Assembly (NCBI GenBank): GCA_049322915.1
Contig: JBMOPW010000014.1
Coordinates: forward strand, 541,527-605,526
Reading direction: 5' to 3'
DNA: 64,000 nucleotides
Origin: Candidatus Zhuqueibacterota bacterium
GTDB taxonomy: Bacteria > Zhuqueibacterota > Zhuqueibacteria > Thermofontimicrobiales > Thermofontimicrobiaceae
Positions 30,640-40,045 of this stretch are shown in pieces; the stretch's first letter is position 1; each line of letters opens with the position of its first letter. Below the pieces are notes generated by a model, which ran no database searches, was not told the origin of the DNA, and worked only from the letters and a program-made list of their open reading frames with translations. Made by a program: the position numbers and the translations under genes.

Positions 30640-31099
30640 CCGCGATTTACCAATTGGGCGCCGGGACACGTGCACGGGATGGCGCTGTCGGAATGAACTT
30701 GCGCCGTCCCGTACAATGTGTGGCGTGCCGGAAAAATTACCGACCTGAAATTGCATCGGTTGCCCTGTGTCAATTGACCGCTTTTAACTCATTGCCTCAG
30801 TGAGACTCGTATCCCCCCATGATTCGATTCAGCCCCCAATTCGAAAATTAGCTGTGCGTCGTAGTTCACGGGACGATTCGATTGCGCCTGGTTTTTGTAA
30901 ACGTGAATAACGCAGCAGTGATCCAATTTTAACAGCATCGGAGTCCTGAAAAAATAGCGCAAGGTTTTTTCGCAGATGCCGTCTAATGAATTGAAACAGG
31001 ATGAAATTGTCCGAGTGGTCGGCGTCGCCGCCCTGTTGATGTTTCAAGTCGCATGCACTATTTTAACAAAAAATAATTATAACCTGAAAGGAAAAACGT

Positions 31100-31609
31100 A
31101 TGAAAACAAAACTGAGTTTGGGACTGGCAATCGCTGTCATCGTGATTGCGACTGTGGTGTTTGCCCAGATTCCGATCAAAGAGCGACAGGCCAGACAGCC
31201 TCGTCTGGATAAGCTTGAATTGACGGATGAGCAGGAATCGAAAATTCAGGATCTCCATCTTGCTTTGCAGAAAGAAATTCTTCCGATGACGAGTAAAATT
31301 CGCTCACTCGGGGATGAGATCAAACAGGAAATGATCGCTGAAAAATTCAACCAGTCCAAAGTGAAAGGCCTCATTGAACAGAAAGAGCAGATTCGAACTG
31401 AGATTCAGTTCAAACGAGCGCTCAATCAACGGGCAGTTCGCGAAATTCTGACTCCGGAACAGCAGAAGAAATTTGACCTGGGTGTGCTGCGCATGGGAAA
31501 GAGAATGGGAATGCGATTCCACGGCGAAGACAGGCGGCCCGGCCGACCCATGCGCATGGGCATGGATCAGCCGGAACCGGAAGCCCCACTGCCTGATCGG
31601 GAACAATAA
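31100..31609 (+). CDS. Spy/CpxP-family periplasmic protein
   Basis: Signal peptide; LELTDEQESKI and ILTPEQQKKF LTxxQ motifs. Confidence 0.8.
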   Translation: MKTKLSLGLAIAVIVIATVVFAQIPIKERQARQPRLDKLELTDEQESKIQDLHLALQKEILPMTSKIRSLGDEIKQEMIAEKFNQSKVKGLIEQKEQIRTEIQFKRALNQRAVREILTPEQQKKFDLGVLRMGKRMGMRFHGEDRRPGRPMRMGMDQPEPEAPLPDREQ

Positions 31610-31640
31610 CGCGATTGGCGCCTGTGTCGAATGAAAATAG

Positions 31641-31675
31641 AATGGAGCAGATTGAGTTTTGCTCCATTTTTTTTT
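31641..31675 (+). terminator. Rho-independent terminator
   Basis: AATGGAGCAG...TTGCTCCATT plus T run. Confidence 0.75.
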
Positions 31676-31771
31676 GTTTGTCCGAAACGCGCAGTGAGCG
31701 TATGGAGAATAGGAAGTGAAAAATTCGTGACTGTTTAGTCATTTTCAGTACACAAAGACTGCCCTCCGATC

Positions 31772-31866
31772 GTTCGGGATATTCATCCCGAACCGTGCGC
31801 ACATTCCGGGACATAGGTCCCAGCCATTGCCCGCGCTGGAAGGATGTGAACCATCCGGAAAAATGT
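31772..31866 (+). ncRNA. Candidate structured RNA (unassigned)
   Basis: 9-bp hairpin at 31772-31793, then a four-way-junction-like fold at 31801-31866; lies between two terminators. Confidence 0.3.
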
Positions 31867-31876
31867 AATTAAAACG

Positions 31877-31909
31877 AAACCGGGTCTTGAAAAGAGGCCC
31901 GGTTTTTTT
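31877..31909 (+). terminator. Rho-independent terminator
   Basis: AAACCGGGTCTT-gaa-AAGAGGCCCGGTTT (one bulge) plus T run. Confidence 0.7.
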
Positions 31910-32048
31910 ATGAGATGTCAATATTGTTTTCAAATAATGAGTTGATTCTTGGAAAAATTTTATTAAATTATCAAAATTACACCGAACAGGAATGTCGAAG
32001 GTTTAAATTCCAGTCATCTGCTATAACTATATTCCACAGGAGAATATA

Positions 32049-35000
32049 ATGATTGAAATTGCCGGTTTTATAGGTAAAATATTATCTGAAAAGGCGCTCG
32101 AAAAATTGTTGAACAACATTTTTAATGGCAACAAATCCGCGCTGCAAAAAGCGTATGAAAAGGCGTTTGAAAATACAGTTAATTATTACGAGTATAATTA
32201 CCGCAACAAGTATGGTGCAAAGAATAACCGCTTTTTTAACTACCAGTCCGCGGAAGAAGAACTGATTAAACTCACCTTTGTCCGCCAAAATCCTGACCCG
32301 GACATGCTGGCGCAGATTGAGTGGGAGCATGGTGTAACAACTCCCCCAAAAATTATTTTAGATTTTGTGAACTACCTGCGTTATCAGATGTCCCAATTCA
32401 GGGAATGCGAGGACATTCTCGTGGAAAAGGATAAATATCAATCGTTGATGAATATTGATAAAAATACAGATGGAATTGCCCGAAATATTAAAGAGCTCAC
32501 CAACCATTTTGTAAAAAAAGAACCCGAAGAAGATACCAGGCCGCTCCACTGGAAACACCTTTACAACGCCTTTAAAGACCGGAAGCTGCATGAAGTCTCC
32601 ATAAAACATGTTGGCGGTGGTTTGTTGGGACCGGAAACCCTCCCGCTGGAAGATGTATTTTTTGTGCAGGATGCAGGTTTTCGATGGCTGGGAATTGGAA
32701 TGAAATCTGCCAAAGTGCAGAAGAAAGAAAACAAAAACAGTGAACTGTTCGATGAGCTGACTGTTTGCGAAGGACATGTTTGGCGAGCGCTGCAGGAGCT
32801 GCAAATAAATACAAGCCATATAAGAAAAATTATGGATGGAATCGATAAAGAAAAAATTTTAAAAATTGCCGCCGAGTTTGCAGTAAAATATAATAAACAT
32901 TCAACGGTTTTCGGCAATCAGCATTTTCAGCAAATTGTTGATCAATTGGCCCAACGATTTGAGTTGACTTCTTCTCACATCATTGCCGCGTTGAGTCTTT
33001 ATTTTACAGAAACGATTAAACGCGAGCCAGTCCTTGATTTGCTGAAACCGCCCTGTTCCGCATTTGTTATCGGGGACGCCGGCGTGGGAAAAACAACGGT
33101 GATGCGAAGGCTGGCTCTGAATTTATTCCATCGACTGGAAAACGGCGAAGAAAATGTACCGCTGCCTTTATTTGTCAGGCTTGACAAGATCGAGGATTAT
33201 ATAAAAGAAAAACAGAGCATCCATCAAGGGAAAAAAGCGTTGCTGCAATATATCGCTGACCATTGGAAATCGCATGTCAGTCATGAATCCGACATTTCAG
33301 CGTCTGCCATTGAACAATGCGAATTACCCCTGCAAATAATGCTGGATGGGTTGGATGAAATCCCATCCGCCAATATCCGGGAAAAATTAATCCTCGTCAT
33401 TCGCGATCTTGTTCAGGGACAAACGTGCAATATTATTATCACCTCCAGGCCGACTGCCGTGGATACGGCGTTAATTAAAACTTCTGAATTAAATGAGATT
33501 CGCCTGCTGGAATTAACATCCAAACAAACAAATGAATTTGTGAACAAATTTTTTGAAATATACAATTGTCCGAAATCAGGCAAAGCCGACAGCGCCAAAT
33601 TCAAATCTGCGTTAGAGCTTTCCGACGCGGCCATGCTGTTTGCCGGCAATCCGCTTTACCTGACCGTGATGATTTTAATGCACAAGAAAAATGAGGTGCT
33701 GCCCAAAAAAAGGTTGGAACTGTATGCGGAATTTTACCAGATGTTGCTGTTGCAGCGTTCGACCGGGCAATTCAAAGGCAAACTGGCAGACAGGCCTGCG
33801 CTGCGCATTCAGGATGAAAAAATTATTCACTGGGGCGAGGCCGTTTATACGCCTCTGCTGCAATGGATCGCTTACCTCACCCACAGCAATGACGCAGACA
33901 GCGTTAGCATCGAGAAACAATATGTGATTGACGCGATTAAAAAGGAAGATTTGCAGCAGGAGTTAAAACTGATCAGCCTGGAAAATCTGGCAGAACGATT
34001 CATTAATTTTGCCGATGAAGAGCTGGGATTGCTGGTCTCGCGGGGACAGTTTTACGGATTCAGCCATCGGTCGCTGCAGGAATTTTTAGCGGCCATGCAT
34101 CTGGCTGATTATCAGAAAGAACCATCCATTGAACAGTTTTGGACGGACCAGGCGCTGAAAAAACCGGATCGCTGGATGGAAGTGGCCCGGCTGCTGTTCT
34201 GCAAAATTCTGGATAAAAAATTTTTCGCGACCTGGGTGCGGGATATAAACGATACAAAAGATCCCCGCGTGATCCGGTTAATTCAATCCATTATTTTCGA
34301 TCTGGAAGAGTTCTTTCCCGGGGGCGGCGGCATTCAGTCGCAGAAGGAAAGTGTGCAAAAAGCGCTTGTTTCCCGGCGGGATAAATCCCACGGCTCACCG
34401 GACATGTTCCTCGCCTGCTCCGATGCACTTGGTTCCATGGATGTTCCGCCAATTTCCATTGCCGATCCGCCTGTGGTAAAATTGGTGGCACGGGAGCCGT
34501 TCACCATGGGGATTAATTATTTCGATGATGATACGAAACCTGAATTTAAGGCAACTTTGTCACCCTATTACATGGGGCAATACCCGGTCACCAATAAGGA
34601 ATTTGCCGAATTTATCAACGATGGCGGGTACACCGAGGAAAAATATTGGCGCAGCAGTCATGAAATGTTTACTTTTGATGGAAAAAAAATTTTAGAGGAT
34701 TTAAAAAATAAAACTCCTGAGTATTGGGATGACGAACGATTTGGCAAAAAACGTCCCCTGGTCCCTGTCGTGGGCGTGAGCTGGTACGAGGCCATGGCGT
34801 ATTGTTTATGGTGGAATGAAAAATATGGCGCGGCATGGGCAGAAAGTCATGGTCGTAAAAAAATACTGGTGCGCCTGCCCACCGAAGCGGAATGGGAATT
34901 TGCTGCGCGTGGCTATTCAGGCAGAAAATATGCCTGGGGCGATGAAAATATTGAAACGGACAGGTGTAATTTTTCTTCCTCCAACTTAGACAGAACCTCG

Positions 35001-35300
35001 ACTGTCGGCAGCTATCCCCGGGGCAAAACGCCGGACGTCGATCTGTACGACTTGAGCGGCAATGTCTGGGAATGGTGCATCGATTGGTACAATGAGAAAT
35101 TTTATGCGGAGTGCAAAAGACAGGGTGTCGTGGAAAATCCTGTATGCGCCAGTAAAGGTTCGTACCGCGTGATGCGCGGCGGTAGCTGGGACTTCACTGC
35201 TGACTACTGCCGATCGGCGAATCGTAGCAGGGGCCGTCCTGGAAGGCGTAACAGCCTTGTTGGCTTCCGCCTGGTGTTCGTCCCGCAGTCAGTTGTGTAG
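32049..35300 (+). CDS. DGR target 1: NACHT/STAND NTPase + FGE-sulfatase (C-type lectin fold) domain protein
   Basis: Walker A GDAGVGKTT, Walker B MLDGLDEI, ITSRP, NPLYLT, FSHRSLQEFLAA; FGE motifs VTNKEF, PVVGVSWYEA, RLPTEAEWEFAARG, LYDLSGNVWEWC, RGGSW, GFRL. Confidence 0.92.
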   Translation: MIEIAGFIGKILSEKALEKLLNNIFNGNKSALQKAYEKAFENTVNYYEYNYRNKYGAKNNRFFNYQSAEEELIKLTFVRQNPDPDMLAQIEWEHGVTTPPKIILDFVNYLRYQMSQFRECEDILVEKDKYQSLMNIDKNTDGIARNIKELTNHFVKKEPEEDTRPLHWKHLYNAFKDRKLHEVSIKHVGGGLLGPETLPLEDVFFVQDAGFRWLGIGMKSAKVQKKENKNSELFDELTVCEGHVWRALQELQINTSHIRKIMDGIDKEKILKIAAEFAVKYNKHSTVFGNQHFQQIVDQLAQRFELTSSHIIAALSLYFTETIKREPVLDLLKPPCSAFVIGDAGVGKTTVMRRLALNLFHRLENGEENVPLPLFVRLDKIEDYIKEKQSIHQGKKALLQYIADHWKSHVSHESDISASAIEQCELPLQIMLDGLDEIPSANIREKLILVIRDLVQGQTCNIIITSRPTAVDTALIKTSELNEIRLLELTSKQTNEFVNKFFEIYNCPKSGKADSAKFKSALELSDAAMLFAGNPLYLTVMILMHKKNEVLPKKRLELYAEFYQMLLLQRSTGQFKGKLADRPALRIQDEKIIHWGEAVYTPLLQWIAYLTHSNDADSVSIEKQYVIDAIKKEDLQQELKLISLENLAERFINFADEELGLLVSRGQFYGFSHRSLQEFLAAMHLADYQKEPSIEQFWTDQALKKPDRWMEVARLLFCKILDKKFFATWVRDINDTKDPRVIRLIQSIIFDLEEFFPGGGGIQSQKESVQKALVSRRDKSHGSPDMFLACSDALGSMDVPPISIADPPVVKLVAREPFTMGINYFDDDTKPEFKATLSPYYMGQYPVTNKEFAEFINDGGYTEEKYWRSSHEMFTFDGKKILEDLKNKTPEYWDDERFGKKRPLVPVVGVSWYEAMAYCLWWNEKYGAAWAESHGRKKILVRLPTEAEWEFAARGYSGRKYAWGDENIETDRCNFSSSNLDRTSTVGSYPRGKTPDVDLYDLSGNVWEWCIDWYNEKFYAECKRQGVVENPVCASKGSYRVMRGGSWDFTADYCRSANRSRGRPGRRNSLVGFRLVFVPQSVV
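35156..35288 (+). repeat. DGR variable repeat VR1
   Basis: 133 bp colinear with the TR; 15 mismatches, all at TR adenines. Confidence 0.95.
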
Positions 35301-35401
35301 TTATTCAATTTTCCTGTGAGCAAAACGAGCTGTTTGAACGGAGTGAACGAGGCGGCGAGGGACGAGCCGCCGAGAGAGTGGAGTGAAAACAGCGAGTTGG
35401 G
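35289..35401 (+). repeat. Post-VR conserved element (IMH/hairpin region), copy 1
   Basis: 113 bp, 4 mismatches to 38019-38131; not present after the TR. Confidence 0.85.
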
Positions 35402-35456
35402 GGGGATGTATAAAATTAGTGAAAATACATTATAAATAGGCTGATTAGATTGAAAC

Positions 35457-35543
35457 CTGTCATTGCGAGGAACGTTTTTTGTGACGAAGCAATCCCCTTG
35501 GGCACAGTAGATTGCTTCGACAAAAACCGTCTCGCAATGACAG
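35457..35543. repeat. 87-bp palindromic element (GTCATTGCGAG...CTCGCAATGAC type)
   Basis: CTGTCATTGCGAG/CTCGCAATGACAG outer arms and CGAAGCAATC/GATTGCTTCG inner arms. Confidence 0.8.
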
Positions 35544-35599
35544 TATCCTAGAAAGATTTAGATGTACTATGCCAATATATTGAAATGGGCATCAATCGC

Positions 35600-35732
35600 A
35601 GGTTCGAACCGCGTGATGCGCGGCGGTAGCTGGAACAACACTGCTGACAACTGCCGATCAGCGAATCGTAACAGGAACAATCCTGAAAGGCGTAACAACA
35701 ATGTTGGCTTCCGCCTGGTGTTCGTCCCGCAG
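35600..35732 (+). repeat. DGR template repeat TR
   Basis: 34 adenines, 11 AAY codons in the target frame; all 99 non-A positions are identical in VR1 and VR2. Confidence 0.95.
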
Positions 35733-35862
35733 CTCACAGGAAAGTTGGATGACTACCTCTGAACAGATTGCTGTCCCACTCGCTGAAAGGCGATAAATAA
35801 CGAAACAGAATACACAGCGCTGGTAGGGCAAATGGATGTTTGTTTCGAAGGCGCTGTGTGTT
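35733..35862 (+). ncRNA. Putative structured spacer of the DGR template RNA
   Basis: Hairpins TCGC-tgaaag-GCGA and AATACACAGCGC(35809-35820)/GCGCTGTGTGTT(35851-35862) enclosing TGGTAG...CGAAG. Confidence 0.55.
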
Positions 35863-35900
35863 TGATAATTGGATTGTTTTCAAGAGGAAAGGTTATACAA

Positions 35901-38030
35901 ATGGTTGAGATTTTTAAGCCCATTATTGATCTGTTAACAAACCCTTTATCTCATTTATTTAAAACTCTCGGATTCGGTGACAAGGCGGCAAATGCCTTTG
36001 CAGCGGTTTTGCTTGCATTAATTTTCTATCTTATCATTATCTTATTGAAAGATCAATTTCGAAGGTTTAAAAATAGGCGCAGCGCCAGAGATTTAAAACC
36101 CGAATTTGATTATAAGACAATTAAAGGCTTTCGTGAAATTTTTATTCCCTCAAGATATGATCGGATTTCTCCCAATAGGTATGATAATCCCCATGAGGCG
36201 CATAAGCATAGTGAACCCCGTAAGCTTATTCCATTTATGTTAAAAAAGTCATTTAACGAACGGGTTGAAAATGAAAAGTTTTATTTAATTCTTGGAGACT
36301 CCGGGATGGGGAAGACCGCATTTATGGTCAATTTGTATATAAAATTTCATTCAGTTTTCAGATTCAACCGGAATCATAAAATGAAATTATTTCGTTTCCA
36401 GCCGCCGGATATAGATGATCCCGAAGACGTAATTGAGAGAATAAAAAAGATAGATCGCGAGGAAGCAAAAAATACAATTTTATTATTAGATGGATTAGAC
36501 GAAGACCCTTATATTTTATCCAAAGATCCGAAAGTCACCGATGACGCTGCTTTTGAGAAGAGATTAAATAATATCGCCAGCAGCACTAAAAATTTTTGTG
36601 ATGTTGTTATCACCTGCCGTACACAATATTTTCCACAGGAAGAGTTGCAGGATTATGTCCTTAGTATTCGAAAACCTGATGGCGGATTTTTTAAATTAAA
36701 TAAATATTACTTGTTTCCCTTTTCTGATAAAGAAGTTAAAAAGTATTTAAGAAAAAAATATGGAGTGCTCAGATTTTGGAACCGGCCAAAAAAGAAAAAA
36801 GCGAAATTGTTAGTTGAGAATTCTCATAAATTAATGTCCAGACCGATGTTGCTCTCGTATCTGGATGATTTAGTTGTTGAGGAGGATGTTAAATATAGAA
36901 ATTGTTATCAAATTTATGAAACGCTGATTGAAAAGTGGATTGACCGGGAAAGTAAAAAATGTAAAAAACCAAATGAACAGGAGAAATTTAAAAAAAATTT
37001 AAGAAAGCTGGCGCACGAAACTGCGCTGGATATGTACGCGAAATGGCAATCCGAGGGTGTGTTGTTTCTTAAAAAAGAGGATACCGATAACCTGGCAAAT
37101 AAGTATAATATTGAATTAAAACCTGAAGAGGTTAAAGGCAAGTCCTTGCTCACCTGCGATCCGTTGCGAAACTGGAAATTCGCCCATAAATCCATTCTTG
37201 AATATTTTCTGGCAATAGAATGTTTTAATAAATTGGAGTTTGCAGTAAACTTCAATTTCACCGGTATGGACATGGTGAAACATTTTTATGAAGAGATGCA
37301 GCCCTTTATTAATGCAACCGATTTTGTCAAAGTGGAATTTGGTGTTTTTAAAATGGGTGATGAGTATGGCGATCTAGGCTCTAGTGAAAAACCGGTGCAT
37401 GATGTAAAAATTTCCGATTTTTATATGAGTAAAACTTTAGTGACGCAAAAATTCTAGAACGATATTATGGGAAGCAATCCATCACATTTTAAGAATGGAG
37501 GAGAATACCCGGTTGAACAAGTGAACTGGGATGATGTTCAGGAATTTATTGAAAAGTTACACCAAAAAACAGGCATGAAGTTTCGTTTGCCCACAGAGGC
37601 TGAATGGGAATATGCAGCCCGCGGCGGCCACAAAGCCCCGGTAAAAGATGGCGTGCATGTTGGGAAATTCAGGTATGCCGGCAGCGATAACCTGGATGAA
37701 GTGGGTTGGTATGAAGGAAATTCAGATAAAAAAACTCACCCGGTTGCCGGTAAAAAACCGAATGAACTGGGGCTGTACGACATGAGCGGCAATGTGTGGG
37801 AGTGGTGTCTGGACTGGTATGATGAAAAATATTATAAAGAATGTCAGAAACAGGGTGTTGTGGAAAATCCTGAGTGCACCAGGGAAGGTTCGTACCGCGT
37901 GATGCGCGGCGGTAGCTGGAACAACACTGCTGACTACTGCCGATCAGCGTATCGTCGCGGGGGCAATCCTGTTAGGCGTTTCGACTTTGTTGGCTTCCGC
38001 CTGGTGTTCGTCCCGCAGTCAGTTGTGTAG
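35901..38030 (+). pseudogene. DGR target 2: TM + NACHT NTPase + FGE/CLec protein interrupted by an in-frame TAG at 37455-37457
   Basis: ORFs 35832-37457 and 37467-38030 share a frame; VTQKF*NDIMGSNPSHF spans the stop. GDSGMGKT, LLLDGLDE, FAHKSILEYF; FGE motifs downstream. Confidence 0.8.
37886..38018 (+). repeat. DGR variable repeat VR2
   Basis: 133 bp colinear with the TR; 15 mismatches, all at TR adenines. Confidence 0.95.
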
Positions 38031-38131
38031 TTATTCAATTTTCCTGTGAGCAAAACGAGCTGTTTGAACGGAGTGAACGAGGCGGCGAGGGACGAGCCGC
38101 TGAGAGAATGGAGAGAGAACAGCGAGTTGGG
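38019..38131 (+). repeat. Post-VR conserved element, copy 2
   Basis: Near-identical to 35289-35401. Confidence 0.85.
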
Positions 38132-38203
38132 TTTGCGGCGTATTGATAGAATTAAATCTATTTTTGGTCTATGCACGTGCGCGTAATGTTAGTCGTTGAA
38201 ACG

Positions 38204-38857
38204 AGCCCCAACGGGGCGAGATACTTTAGCTCAGGGCAACGCCCTGAGTAGATGGTAATTAACACGAACAAATCACCACAACACCCATCAACAAACCGAG
38301 GGTGCCATCACCCAAACAGGAGAGAAAGGAGGAATGATGCCACAAAGCCTGTCCAAAGTATACATTCATTTAGTGTTCAGCACAAAAAATCAAAAAGAAA
38401 TTATCGATCCTGACATTGAAAAAGAGTTGTATCCCTACATGGCGGCGCTATTTCGTGAAAGCGATTCACCGGCGATTATTATAAATGGTGTATCGAATCA
38501 TGTGCATAATTTATTTTTACTCTCCCGGAAATTTGCAATCAGCCAGGTTGTTGAAAACGTAAAAAAGAAATCATCAAAATGGATAAAAACAAAGGGTGAG
38601 CGGTATAAATCATTCTATTGGCAAAACGGATACGGGACTTTTTCAATCAGTCGCACGCATGTTGATGTGGTGAAAAAATATATTTTAAACCAGAAATCGC
38701 ATCATGCACAGACCTCGTTTCAGGGCGAATACCGGAAACTCCTTAATAAATACAATATCGAATATGATGAGCGATATGTTTGGGATTAGGGCGTTTATTG
38801 AGTTCCGTGGTCATCAGGGCGTTGCCCCGGGTTGGGATAAGTCGCTCCGTTGGAGCT
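38204..38857 (+). mobile_element. IS200/IS605-like (Y1) element flanked by inverted REP-like double hairpins
   Basis: AGCCCCAACGGGGCG...CAGGGCAACGCCCTGA (38204-38247) and its inverted counterpart TCAGGGCGTTGCCC...CGCTCCGTTGGAGCT (38814-38857) flank tnpA. Confidence 0.75.
38334..38789 (+). CDS. tnpA: IS200/IS605-family Y1 (HUH) transposase
   Basis: YIHLVFSTK, NHVH (HUH), KKKSSKWI, WQNGYGTFSIS, YILNQKSHH. Confidence 0.9.
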   Translation: MMPQSLSKVYIHLVFSTKNQKEIIDPDIEKELYPYMAALFRESDSPAIIINGVSNHVHNLFLLSRKFAISQVVENVKKKSSKWIKTKGERYKSFYWQNGYGTFSISRTHVDVVKKYILNQKSHHAQTSFQGEYRKLLNKYNIEYDERYVWD

Positions 38858-39036
38858 AAAATTCAGAAAATTCCACCGCAAGGTTTTTTCCCTGGTATCG
38901 TCAAAACAAGTAGTCGTTCTAATCATGAATTAATTCAGACCAACCACAGGAAATTTTTTTAACGTGCATGGCAGATTTTTCGAATGTGACACATAGCGCA
39001 GAAATCCGGAGACAGAAACGTGATCGGGCGACTCCC

Positions 39037-39612
39037 ATGGATGAGCTGGAACTGCTGGAAAAATTGAAATCCGGACAGGCGGATGCATTCAAATTTCTGG
39101 TGGATGCGTACCATGAAAAAGTATTGAATACCTGCTTTCGATTTCTGAATAATAAAGAGGACGCGGAGGATTTGGCCCAGGAAGTCTTTGTGACGGTGTA
39201 CCGGTCGGTCGGTGATTTTCGGGGGGAATCCAAAATTTCATCGTGGATTTATCGCATTGCCGTCACTCGTTCGCTGGACGCCTATCGCAGGAAAAACCGG
39301 AAAAAGCGTTTCGCGAAAATGCAGCGCCTGATTGGACTTAAGGAAAACGAAGATGCGCTGCAAATTCCCGATGCTCAGAATCCATCCGCTGAATTGGAGG
39401 ACAAAGAACGGGCGGCGATATTGCAGCGGGCGCTGAATGGGCTGCCGGAGAATCAGCGCGCGGTCATCACGTTGAACAAGTACGAGGGGTTCAGCCAAAA
39501 AGAAATTGCAGACATCATGGGGACATCTGTTTCGTCGGTCGAGTCGTTGATGCATCGTGGAAAGAAGAATTTGTTTAAACGGCTGTACGCGTACTATGAT
39601 AAAATTATTTAA
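39037..39612 (+). CDS. ECF RNA polymerase sigma factor
   Basis: DAEDLAQEVF, FRGESKISSWIYRIA, LPENQR...EGFSQKEIADIMGTSVSSVES. Confidence 0.9.
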   Translation: MDELELLEKLKSGQADAFKFLVDAYHEKVLNTCFRFLNNKEDAEDLAQEVFVTVYRSVGDFRGESKISSWIYRIAVTRSLDAYRRKNRKKRFAKMQRLIGLKENEDALQIPDAQNPSAELEDKERAAILQRALNGLPENQRAVITLNKYEGFSQKEIADIMGTSVSSVESLMHRGKKNLFKRLYAYYDKII

Positions 39613-39618
39613 TGTACT

Positions 39619-39785
39619 TAGCCTGCATTATTCATAGTATTTTTAAAGGAGGCTGGCTAACCTGAATGGTGCTCTTTTTAGAATAAACGTATAAAAACTG
39701 AGTTTCAAAATAGCTTAGCCTTTAGCTAATTGAAAATCTAAATGTTGACTCAAATTCTGAGCAAGTTCATGAATAATTCAGGTTA
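39619..39785. mobile_element. MITE-like element, copy 2 (inverted relative to 1958-2117)
   Basis: Ends TAGCCTGCATTATTCAT / ATGAATAATTCAGGTTA, internal TAACCTGAATGGTGC at 39658. Confidence 0.7.
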
Positions 39786-40045
39786 GACGCAACTCTGGAA
39801 AATTCGGACATCCTTCCTTGCTCCCCTTCAAAGGGGGGATGCGGTCAACTTTAGCTATTGGCTTTCATTGACAAGTAGCGATTGAACGTTGACAATTGAC
39901 TATTTCTTTTTTCCTTTCAATGGCGAATTGCAAAGGGAGAATTGTCAATTGTGAATGAGGAATTGATGTTACTATAATATTTTACTATTATTTATATGAA
40001 TGACCAGTTAAAATTTTGGCGCCTATATCATTATTGGGCATTCGC

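Follow-up and report, generated by a model that had tools for sequence, protein, structure and literature searches.

The stretch of DNA considered here (the window, 64,000 nucleotides in length) is part of contig JBMOPW010000014.1 (C14) of the Candidatus Zhuqueibacterota bacterium assembly GCA_049322915.1. It contains a diversity-generating retroelement (DGR) cassette, with a template repeat (TR), two target genes and two variable repeats (VRs), and each VR is followed by a hairpin built around tandem G·A pairs, termed here the rod (Table 1). The assignment to the DGRs relates to two features, namely that TR and VRs differ only at adenines and that the VRs end target genes of the C-type lectin (CLec) fold, in the form of an FGE-sulfatase domain. 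Since the adenine pattern is clean, the cassette would appear to have been active recently. How the complementary DNA (cDNA) of a DGR finds and enters its target is described as an outstanding question in the accessible portions of three accounts (PMC5703328, PMC12875486, bioRxiv 10.1101/2023.10.23.563531).

Comparison with its relatives identifies the cassette as an HRDC-type (Architecture C) orphan, which has lost the genes for the reverse transcriptase (RT) and the HRDC accessory protein. Among the relatives of the RT 76 of 80 carry an HRDC gene and none has a match to Avd, and within this HRDC clade the accessory gene overlaps the RT gene. Homologous loci with both genes share their TR end, spacer and rod with the window locus and follow the order target, rod, HRDC gene, RT, TR, spacer, target and rod. 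Because relatives with the same TR end, spacer and rod have the HRDC gene, the window locus is read as a deletion derivative. In the Architecture C elements described from, for example, Treponema denticola (PMC5758913; Nimkulrat et al., PMC4891356) the HRDC gene likewise overlaps the RT gene, and there are several FGE-sulfatase/CLec targets per DGR; unlike these exemplars the window locus has neither RT nor HRDC gene. The available parts of the two papers were not found to describe a G·A rod or complementarity between spacer and target.

No cognate RT is found at the window locus, and the assembly, which is 96% complete, holds two RTs, one belonging to an Avd-type DGR on contig C16 (38% to the HRDC-clade RT) and the other a 988-aa frame on C34. 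A search for the small HRDC protein in the window genome did not find it, returning just a 718-aa frame and a weak hit. The cassette may therefore now be idle, or may be served in trans by a gene that is missing from the assembly. Service by the C16 element is unlikely, as this is of the Avd type, has another spacer and shows neither guide pairing nor a rod. The C16 element (L001, G000:C16:8209-10860) is itself a complete DGR, with target, avd, TR and RT, and displays 15 adenine-only differences.

Table 1 Features of the cassette and its surroundings, in window coordinates.
Feature	Position	Strand	Description
Target gene 1	32049..35300	+	NACHT/STAND NTPase with C-terminal FGE-sulfatase (C-type lectin fold) domain, 1083 aa
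VR1	35156..35288	+	133 nt; 15 differences from TR, all at TR adenines
Guide-complement 1	35289..35320	+	Reverse complement of the RNA 3' of TR; overlaps the last codons and stop of target gene 1
G·A rod hairpin 1	35324..35398	+	Five GA/GA steps, one GGA/GGA step; conserved tip GA-G-GGA-C-GA at 35357-35365
REP-like inverted repeat	35458..35543	.	Multi-copy; lies where relatives have HRDC and RT genes
Segment upstream of TR	35586..35597	+	Pairs with 35766-35778; putative analogue of the BPP-1 'cPRT Stop' duplex
TR	35600..35732	+	133 nt, 34 adenines
Spacer, 5' domain	35733..35764	+	CTCA, 23-nt guide, TGAAC; antisense to the guide-complements
Spacer, remainder	35765..35865	+	Rest of the conserved, structured spacer RNA
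Target gene 2	35832..38030	+	STAND NTPase with FGE-sulfatase domain; in-frame TAG at 37455-37457
VR2	37886..38018	+	15 differences from TR, all at TR adenines
Guide-complement 2	38019..38050	+	Identical to copy 1
G·A rod hairpin 2	38054..38128	+	4 changes relative to copy 1, all in the 3' arm
Y1 (IS200-like) transposase element	38204..38857	+	Gene at 38334-38789, with flanking inverted repeats

Architecture and conservation of the rod

Read from the ends inwards and without gaps, the outer half of the first rod comprises three Watson-Crick pairs, a GA/GA step, seven Watson-Crick pairs, a second GA/GA step, two Watson-Crick pairs and the GGA/GGA step. The inner half continues with two G·T pairs, GA/GA, an A·A mismatch with one C-G pair, GA/GA, six Watson-Crick pairs, GA/GA and a single G-C pair, which closes the GGA triloop at 35360-35362. 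The longest Watson-Crick blocks are therefore of 7 and 6 bp, split by the GA steps. An initial annotation of the window had placed all of the steps in exact register, and it counted correctly the five GA/GA steps, the one GGA/GGA step and the GGA loop, but its segmentation concealed that there is an A·A mismatch and that two of the pairs are G·T wobbles. It also reported a second copy, which is present with its differences confined to the 3' arm, and in both copies the rod starts 36 nt past the VR.

The rod scores on one strand only. With a home-made scorer that rewards Watson-Crick and G·T pairs and tandem GA and GNA/GNA steps by arbitrary weights, the top strands of the two copies score 71 and 63.5 and the bottom strands 12 and 9. 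None of 300 dinucleotide shuffles per copy matches the rod score, the shuffle maximum being 34.5. On the bottom strand TC opposes TC wherever the top strand has GA/GA, and just the Watson-Crick blocks can still pair. Standard DNA folding (ViennaRNA) recovers these blocks only, and does so alike on both strands, with z values of -2.8 (top) and -3.4 (bottom) for copy 1 and -1.6 (top) and -1.3 (bottom) for copy 2. Two expectations of the initial annotation, that the hairpin would fold on the top strand only and that standard tools would miss it, agree with these in silico results. Rfam gave no match at E values of up to 1 over either rod copy or the spacer, and a terminator scan returned no terminator-like site (a GC-rich stem with a T run) at either rod copy.

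The building blocks of the rod are known DNA motifs. Sheared tandem pairs in a pyrimidine-GA-purine context occur in CGAG-block hairpins (PMC10085684), the GGA/GGA step resembles the (GGA)2 guanine zippers of satellite III, for which DNA structures have been solved (PMC11014236), and the triloop resembles the GNA mini-hairpins that are much more stable in DNA than in RNA (PMC13037366), as far as the accessible portions of these sources go. The published examples are human repeats or model oligonucleotides, whereas the rod unites all three blocks in a single element from a bacterium, where they are under evolutionary constraint. Its triloop is closed by G-C, where the available text of PMC3201870 gives C-G as the most stable. 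As the tip is invariant despite this sub-optimal closing pair, recognition rather than maximal stability is suggested.

How well is such a structure maintained in relatives? An alignment was made of 30 close homologues picked by the motif of the 5' arm, and because of this choice the 3' arm provides an independent test. The 22 standard pairs of the rod are formed in 86.9% of the cells of the alignment, a value reached in none of 500 shuffles and in none of the slid controls, all of which are lower, and 13 of the 22 pairs vary on both sides. The measure of further pair types is by itself unexceptional, with 47 of 500 shuffles as high. The GA/GA step is retained in 27, 26 and 28 of the 30 homologues at three positions and in 13 at a fourth, and the zipper step reads G-N-A/G-N-A in 29. 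The same columns speak to whether the arms might instead fold as two local mini-hairpins (GA-NN-GGA-NN-GA each) around a central stem. The window copy pairs about equally in both registers (AC/GT and GT/GT), but across the homologues the local pairs are formed in 72.5% of cells, which 99 of 500 shuffles equal, one of them is broken in 15 of the 30, and it is the rod pairs in those columns that co-vary, making the mini-hairpin fold hardly credible. A cloverleaf of such mini-hairpins was rejected, as the covariation does not support it.

For a wider sample the RT of an intact relative served to collect 80 metagenome loci, which were joined by 80 viral loci whose RTs are more distant. This yielded 130 TR/VR pairs once 7 duplicate loci had been dropped, from which 3 calls in the reverse direction and all pairs whose flanks were short or identical (the latter including VR2 of the window) were then removed, leaving 56 pairs of the HRDC clade (from 50 loci), 54 of phage and 3 of the cellular Avd type. 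Two or more GA or GNA steps are found in 46 of the 56 HRDC-clade top strands, in 0 of the 56 bottom strands and in 1 of the 54 phage top strands. The effect is specific to GA, for when AG, GG or AA is rewarded instead at least two steps are reached in just 15-18 of 56, and six other dinucleotides give 0-2. The HRDC-clade targets outscore all 15 of their own shuffles in 48 of 56 cases, a pyrimidine-GA-purine context surrounds 180 of 278 GA steps in rods against 307 of 653 of all GA in the region, and the tip loop is G-GGA-C in 37 of the 56 targets, the remaining loops being mostly GNA or GNNA.

The rod is also closely associated with VRs. A scan of 185,579 genomes with a pattern covering the 5' arm and loop gave 33 loci and 35 match rows (two repeated from one contig). 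These comprise 21 full rods just after an FGE-type VR, one full rod at a contig edge, 5 matches that follow a VR but have a 3' arm that is damaged or cut, and 8 chance matches with neither rod nor VR. A covariance model in which G·A was declared as a pair gave 27 hits, spread over 18 of the 151 genomes from the phylum; many of these hits were themselves input to the model. Above 70 bits 20 of 21 hits follow an FGE VR and the remaining one is cut by the end of its contig; two of these 21 (L246 and L253) come from unpublished genomes and are left out of all other counts. One weak hit is a tandem repeat. In the window genome, blastn with TR, spacer and rod, a scan of 1205 seed sites and the covariance model return the two window copies only, and the other FGE genes have different 3' flanks. 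The initial annotation had proposed such a genome-wide search, and had named a motif lying mostly away from VRs, or a top strand that fails to fold, as grounds for abandoning its idea. What emerges is that 21 of the 22 full rods lie directly after an FGE VR and that, in silico, the top strand of the homologues offers a strand-specific and co-varying fold. At the level of sequence, then, rods mark HRDC-type DGRs as a real, lineage-wide and non-canonical target signal, whose function is a prediction.

Could the rod belong to some other single-strand system, such as the end of a Y1/HUH-transposase or repetitive extragenic palindromic (REP) element or a primase/primosome signal, and lie beside these genes by chance? 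A Y1 transposase gene is indeed the next feature after copy 2, four truncated rods in an unpublished genome (G107) lie inside a Y1-linked repeat, and an IS21-like istAB element on contig C29 has a GA/GNA rod at its end. This origin is nevertheless very improbable, as such a transposase lies near a rod only in the window and in L044 (2 of 215 sequences searched), the position of the rod is fixed relative to the guide-complement, and the full rods and strong covariance hits follow FGE VRs in the proportions given above, with exceptions that are cut by a contig end. REP and Y1-end hairpins are transposase-linked with many dispersed copies, whereas the rod has two copies in the genome, the exception being the truncated G107 copies. 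ColE1 and phiX174, scanned for a likeness to primosome-assembly or single-strand-initiation signals, have no comparable rod (best scores of 30.5 and 30, against 71), and that likeness was set aside.

Among known DGR signals the rod is most readily set against the target stem-loop of phage BPP-1 (Guo et al. 2011, PMC3240598). Both are hairpins that lie shortly 3' of the VR and are absent after the TR, with a variable stem and a conserved purine loop that starts with G and ends with A. The BPP-1 element, as given in the available portions of that paper, has a perfect GC-rich stem of 7-10 bp and a 4-nt GRNA loop, lies 4-34 bp from the VR and may form on either strand or as a cruciform. The rod, in contrast, is 75 nt long, is interrupted by G·A pairs, has a 3-nt loop, begins 36 nt past the end of TR/VR identity and would by its sequence form on the top strand only. 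The stem-loop rule of MyDGR, as its accessible description reads (PMC6602519), would not detect it. GC-rich inverted repeats were reported by Wu et al. in just 127 of 372 DGRs (PMC5758913, available portions), and the rod may partly explain why perfect inverted repeats follow only a third of DGR targets.

Complementarity of the spacer RNA to the target

Between each VR and its rod lies the 32-nt guide-complement, which was brought to light by a repeat finder through inverted repeats linking the sequence after each VR to that after the TR. In the window 27 of the 32 bases of the spacer domain form Watson-Crick pairs and a further 3 form G·T pairs, with 35288-35320 as partner. Over the 56 HRDC-clade pairs the mean duplex energy is -43.0 kcal/mol with the cognate target, -28.1 with non-cognate and -27.7 with shuffled targets, and in the phage control it is -28.1 (cognate) versus -25.3 kcal/mol. 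Ungapped runs of at least 12 pairs occur in 45 of 56 HRDC-clade pairs versus 1 of 54 from phage. When 31 distinct guide 10-mers are considered, the match to the cognate target is 8.70 of 10 positions versus 4.25 for non-cognate targets, with several pair types per column. Of the transition differences 94 remain as wobble pairs when read as sense RNA against the top strand, versus 11 that would not.

The layout of the spacer is regular, consisting in 52 of 56 pairs of G-CTCA or G-CTTA, a loop mostly of 23-25 nt, and TGAAC or TAAAC. The 5-mers on the CTCA/CTTA and TGAAC/TAAAC sides co-vary, and by analogy with BPP-1 these flanks are predicted to form the template:primer duplex. The next segment of the spacer pairs with sequence upstream of the TR, the cognate partner surpassing the non-cognate mean in 39 of 40 cases. 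The rod begins at most 10 nt from the end of the guide-complement in 45 of 52. The initial annotation had inferred that the hairpin is a target-recognition structure, a reading that the strand-specific fold and the place beside VRs support in silico, but the sequence-specific part of recognition is more likely to be the adjacent 32-nt segment, which it did not mention.

Complementarity of this kind might be a by-product, if the RNA part were sometimes copied into the flank of the target during homing, the rod then being an independent signal on single-stranded DNA. Copying would likewise generate locus-specific complementarity, and flanks are identical at several targets of one locus (VR1 and VR2 of the window, and L024 and L136). 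Near-perfect complements would be expected from it, yet bulges and G·T differences occupy recurrent positions across many loci, and substitutions that preserve pairing between the sense strands prevail by the same 94 to 11. The annealing step would moreover be needed for copying too, and on balance we regard copying as improbable.

Several aspects of this arrangement are shared with BPP-1, for which primer-target pairing and a stem-loop are already in print, to judge from the available portions of Naorem et al. 2017 (PMC5703328) and Handa et al. (bioRxiv 10.1101/2023.10.23.563531). There too the spacer provides the primer for cDNA in cis, the RNA primer makes a better match to the end of the VR than to that of the TR, and, according to the latter source, a duplex between upstream and spacer sequence ('cPRT Stop') follows the primer segment. 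The template:primer duplex of BPP-1 joins TR118-129 to Sp47-56 over about 10 bp, and its RNA primer pairs with the TR-homologous IMH, the initiation of mutagenic homing sequence, so far as the accessible text indicates. The HRDC clade differs in that pairing spans about 32 nt, with a partner that lacks homology to the TR, the sequence varies freely from locus to locus, with compensation, as that of a guide would, and Avd is absent. The loop between the two primer strands here serves as the antisense segment. Neither the rod nor the long guide was found in the portions of the literature searched, to which the supplements of Wu et al. (TR-VR alignments and inverted-repeat calls) may be relevant.

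The guide-complement region is also the site of repeated insertion, in it or beside it and thus between VR and rod, of a small element with ends resembling TTCACCC...TGTGAA. This is seen in L017/L040, L039, L059, L032/L245, L243, L037 and L154 and suggests that the region is an insertion hot spot for this element. An open reading frame in several of the inserted copies resembles what we take to be a GIY-YIG nuclease.

A proposed route of target recognition

The reading that we favour, and which we hold to be reasonably probable on present sequence evidence, is that the rod is the target-side signal of HRDC-type DGRs and that, acting on the top strand of the DNA in its single-stranded state, it makes up half of a two-part site, ordered VR, guide-complement and rod. 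A co-varying duplex between RNA and target together with a hairpin restricted to one strand gives evolutionary support for annealing to single top-strand DNA rather than for recognition of a cruciform.

By analogy with BPP-1 the process would begin with the RNA 3' of the TR folding back through G-CUCA:UGAAC and priming mutagenic cDNA at the 3' end of the TR. The resulting RNA-cDNA chimera would be complementary to the top strand of the target from the base of the rod through the VR with almost no gap, this complementarity being a fact of the sequence, and colinear with it to within one or two bases if priming occurs near UGAAC. Annealing may take place while the top strand is single, most simply as the lagging-strand template or as the non-template strand in transcription. 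The rod, which can fold on the top strand only and so cannot form a cruciform, may keep the site open; alternatively or in addition it may pause a polymerase arriving from the 3' side, or the conserved tip may be bound by an RT-HRDC complex. The hybrid would finally be completed in the manner of an Okazaki fragment, a course put forward for BPP-1 in the available text of PMC5703328. Unwinding or pausing of replication has similarly been proposed for the BPP-1 stem-loop (PMC5703328; bioRxiv 10.1101/2023.10.23.563531, portions available). BPP-1 homing in Escherichia coli favours targets whose cDNA-complementary strand is the lagging-strand template, according to the accessible part of PMC12875486. 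Contig C14 has an excess of G on the + strand in each of its 22 bins, and by this GC skew the top strand serves as lagging-strand template at this one locus.

A bolder version of the proposal is that HRDC-type DGRs are RNA-guided, with the freely variable loop of 23-25 nt, which has no relation to the TR, picking the target through pairing to top-strand DNA and the HRDC protein, in the place of Avd, reading the rod tip and loading the RT. This is put forward tentatively and is the more doubtful of the two. The accessory protein consists of a small beta-alpha-beta-beta domain and a RecQ-like HRDC domain, and its C-terminal half folds like the HRDC domain of RecQ (Z 10.4, root-mean-square deviation 3.0, 73 aligned), making it a plausible candidate reader of the rod. 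Fold searches with its N-terminal 55 residues gave middling matches only (best Z 5.2) and no clear structural match. Were the RNA-guided version true, swapping guide and complement would retarget hypermutation, and natural sheared-G·A/guanine-zipper DNA would be a signal read by protein in vivo. The duplex and rod make compensatory-mutation tests of DGR homing possible, the rod provides a motif for finding remote targets, and the system is a possible Avd-free, reprogrammable hypermutation tool.

The main question of substrate is whether the rod acts as DNA at all, since it could be an RNA structure in the 3' untranslated region of the target mRNA, concerned with stability or protein binding, with the spacer pairing to mRNA and not to DNA. 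All of the strand-asymmetric signals, that is the GA steps and the G·T/G·U wobbles, lie on the sense strand, which is the sequence of the mRNA, and the rod comes after the stop codon. Tandem G·A pairs are stable in RNA too. However, the tips are mostly GNA triloops, which are far more stable in DNA than in RNA (PMC13037366, available portion), neither copy has a terminator-like site, and in BPP-1 the downstream stem-loop acts as DNA, according to the accessible text of PMC3240598. The pairing also extends to the TR/VR boundary and therefore makes the RNA-cDNA colinear with the target, an arrangement that is sensible for annealing to DNA. An mRNA role is for these reasons unlikely.

A number of points weigh against a two-part site on single-stranded top-strand DNA. 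The sense-strand bias would suit mRNA as well as top-strand DNA, and a deamination bias on the exposed strand could lie partly behind the asymmetry of the wobbles. The four truncated rods of G107 (L261-L264) sit in a Y1-transposase-linked repeat and have no VR. Fewer than two GA or GNA steps are present in 10 of the 56 targets, the length and sequence of the rod vary widely, and the locus counts overstate independence because the loci are related, just as the home-made nature of the scorer tempers its results. A triloop closed by G-C is some 3 kcal/mol less stable than one closed by C-G, as the available part of PMC3201870 has it. The adenine directly ahead of the predicted primer pair shows no change in any of 50 VRs, and counts of adenine changes near the TR/VR boundary are too sparse to place the exact priming nucleotide. 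Finally, a perfect GC-rich inverted repeat further downstream (described below) could be the real signal of the BPP-1 type.

Neighbouring and related elements

This second repeat lies downstream of the rod in 37 of the 56 HRDC-clade targets, and has a 3-nt loop in 25 (GAA in 10). Runs of A and T often come after it, and VR1 of the window was not found to have such a repeat. In the accessory protein, as exemplified by L077, residues 1-55 form a well-predicted beta-alpha-beta-beta unit with invariant M1, N21, F23 and W45.

The truncated rods of G107 carry a guide-complement tail and lie within a repeat whose units reach about 1 kb, together with a Y1 transposase gene or its remnant. The GA/GNA rod on C29 lies outside the window at G000:C29:61800-61875 (+), has a GTA triloop and a score of 61.5, and is situated just past the 3' end of an IS21-like istAB pair (named from inspection of the open reading frames), on the opposite strand.

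Within the window the in-frame TAG of target gene 2 falls in its FGE domain upstream of VR2, and the contig of run X1 shows the same letters. As to present activity, a look-up of RNA data sets gave none containing the locus, and assembled contigs of the sequencing run that covers it show no VR variants, an absence that contigs are unable to demonstrate. The REP-like repeat at 35458-35543 exists in several copies in the window genome and is present in many relatives. The Y1 transposase gene, with flanking inverted repeats of 44 nt, is probably a neighbour and not a part of the DGR. The sole Rfam hit in 31000-40000 is to Acido-Lenti-1, which falls on the left repeat of this element (38204-38248) and is below the gathering score. 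Of the other FGE genes, found on G000:C7, C18 and C45, several end in a VR-like sequence followed by apparent avd/RT remnants, and these are possibly decayed DGR loci.
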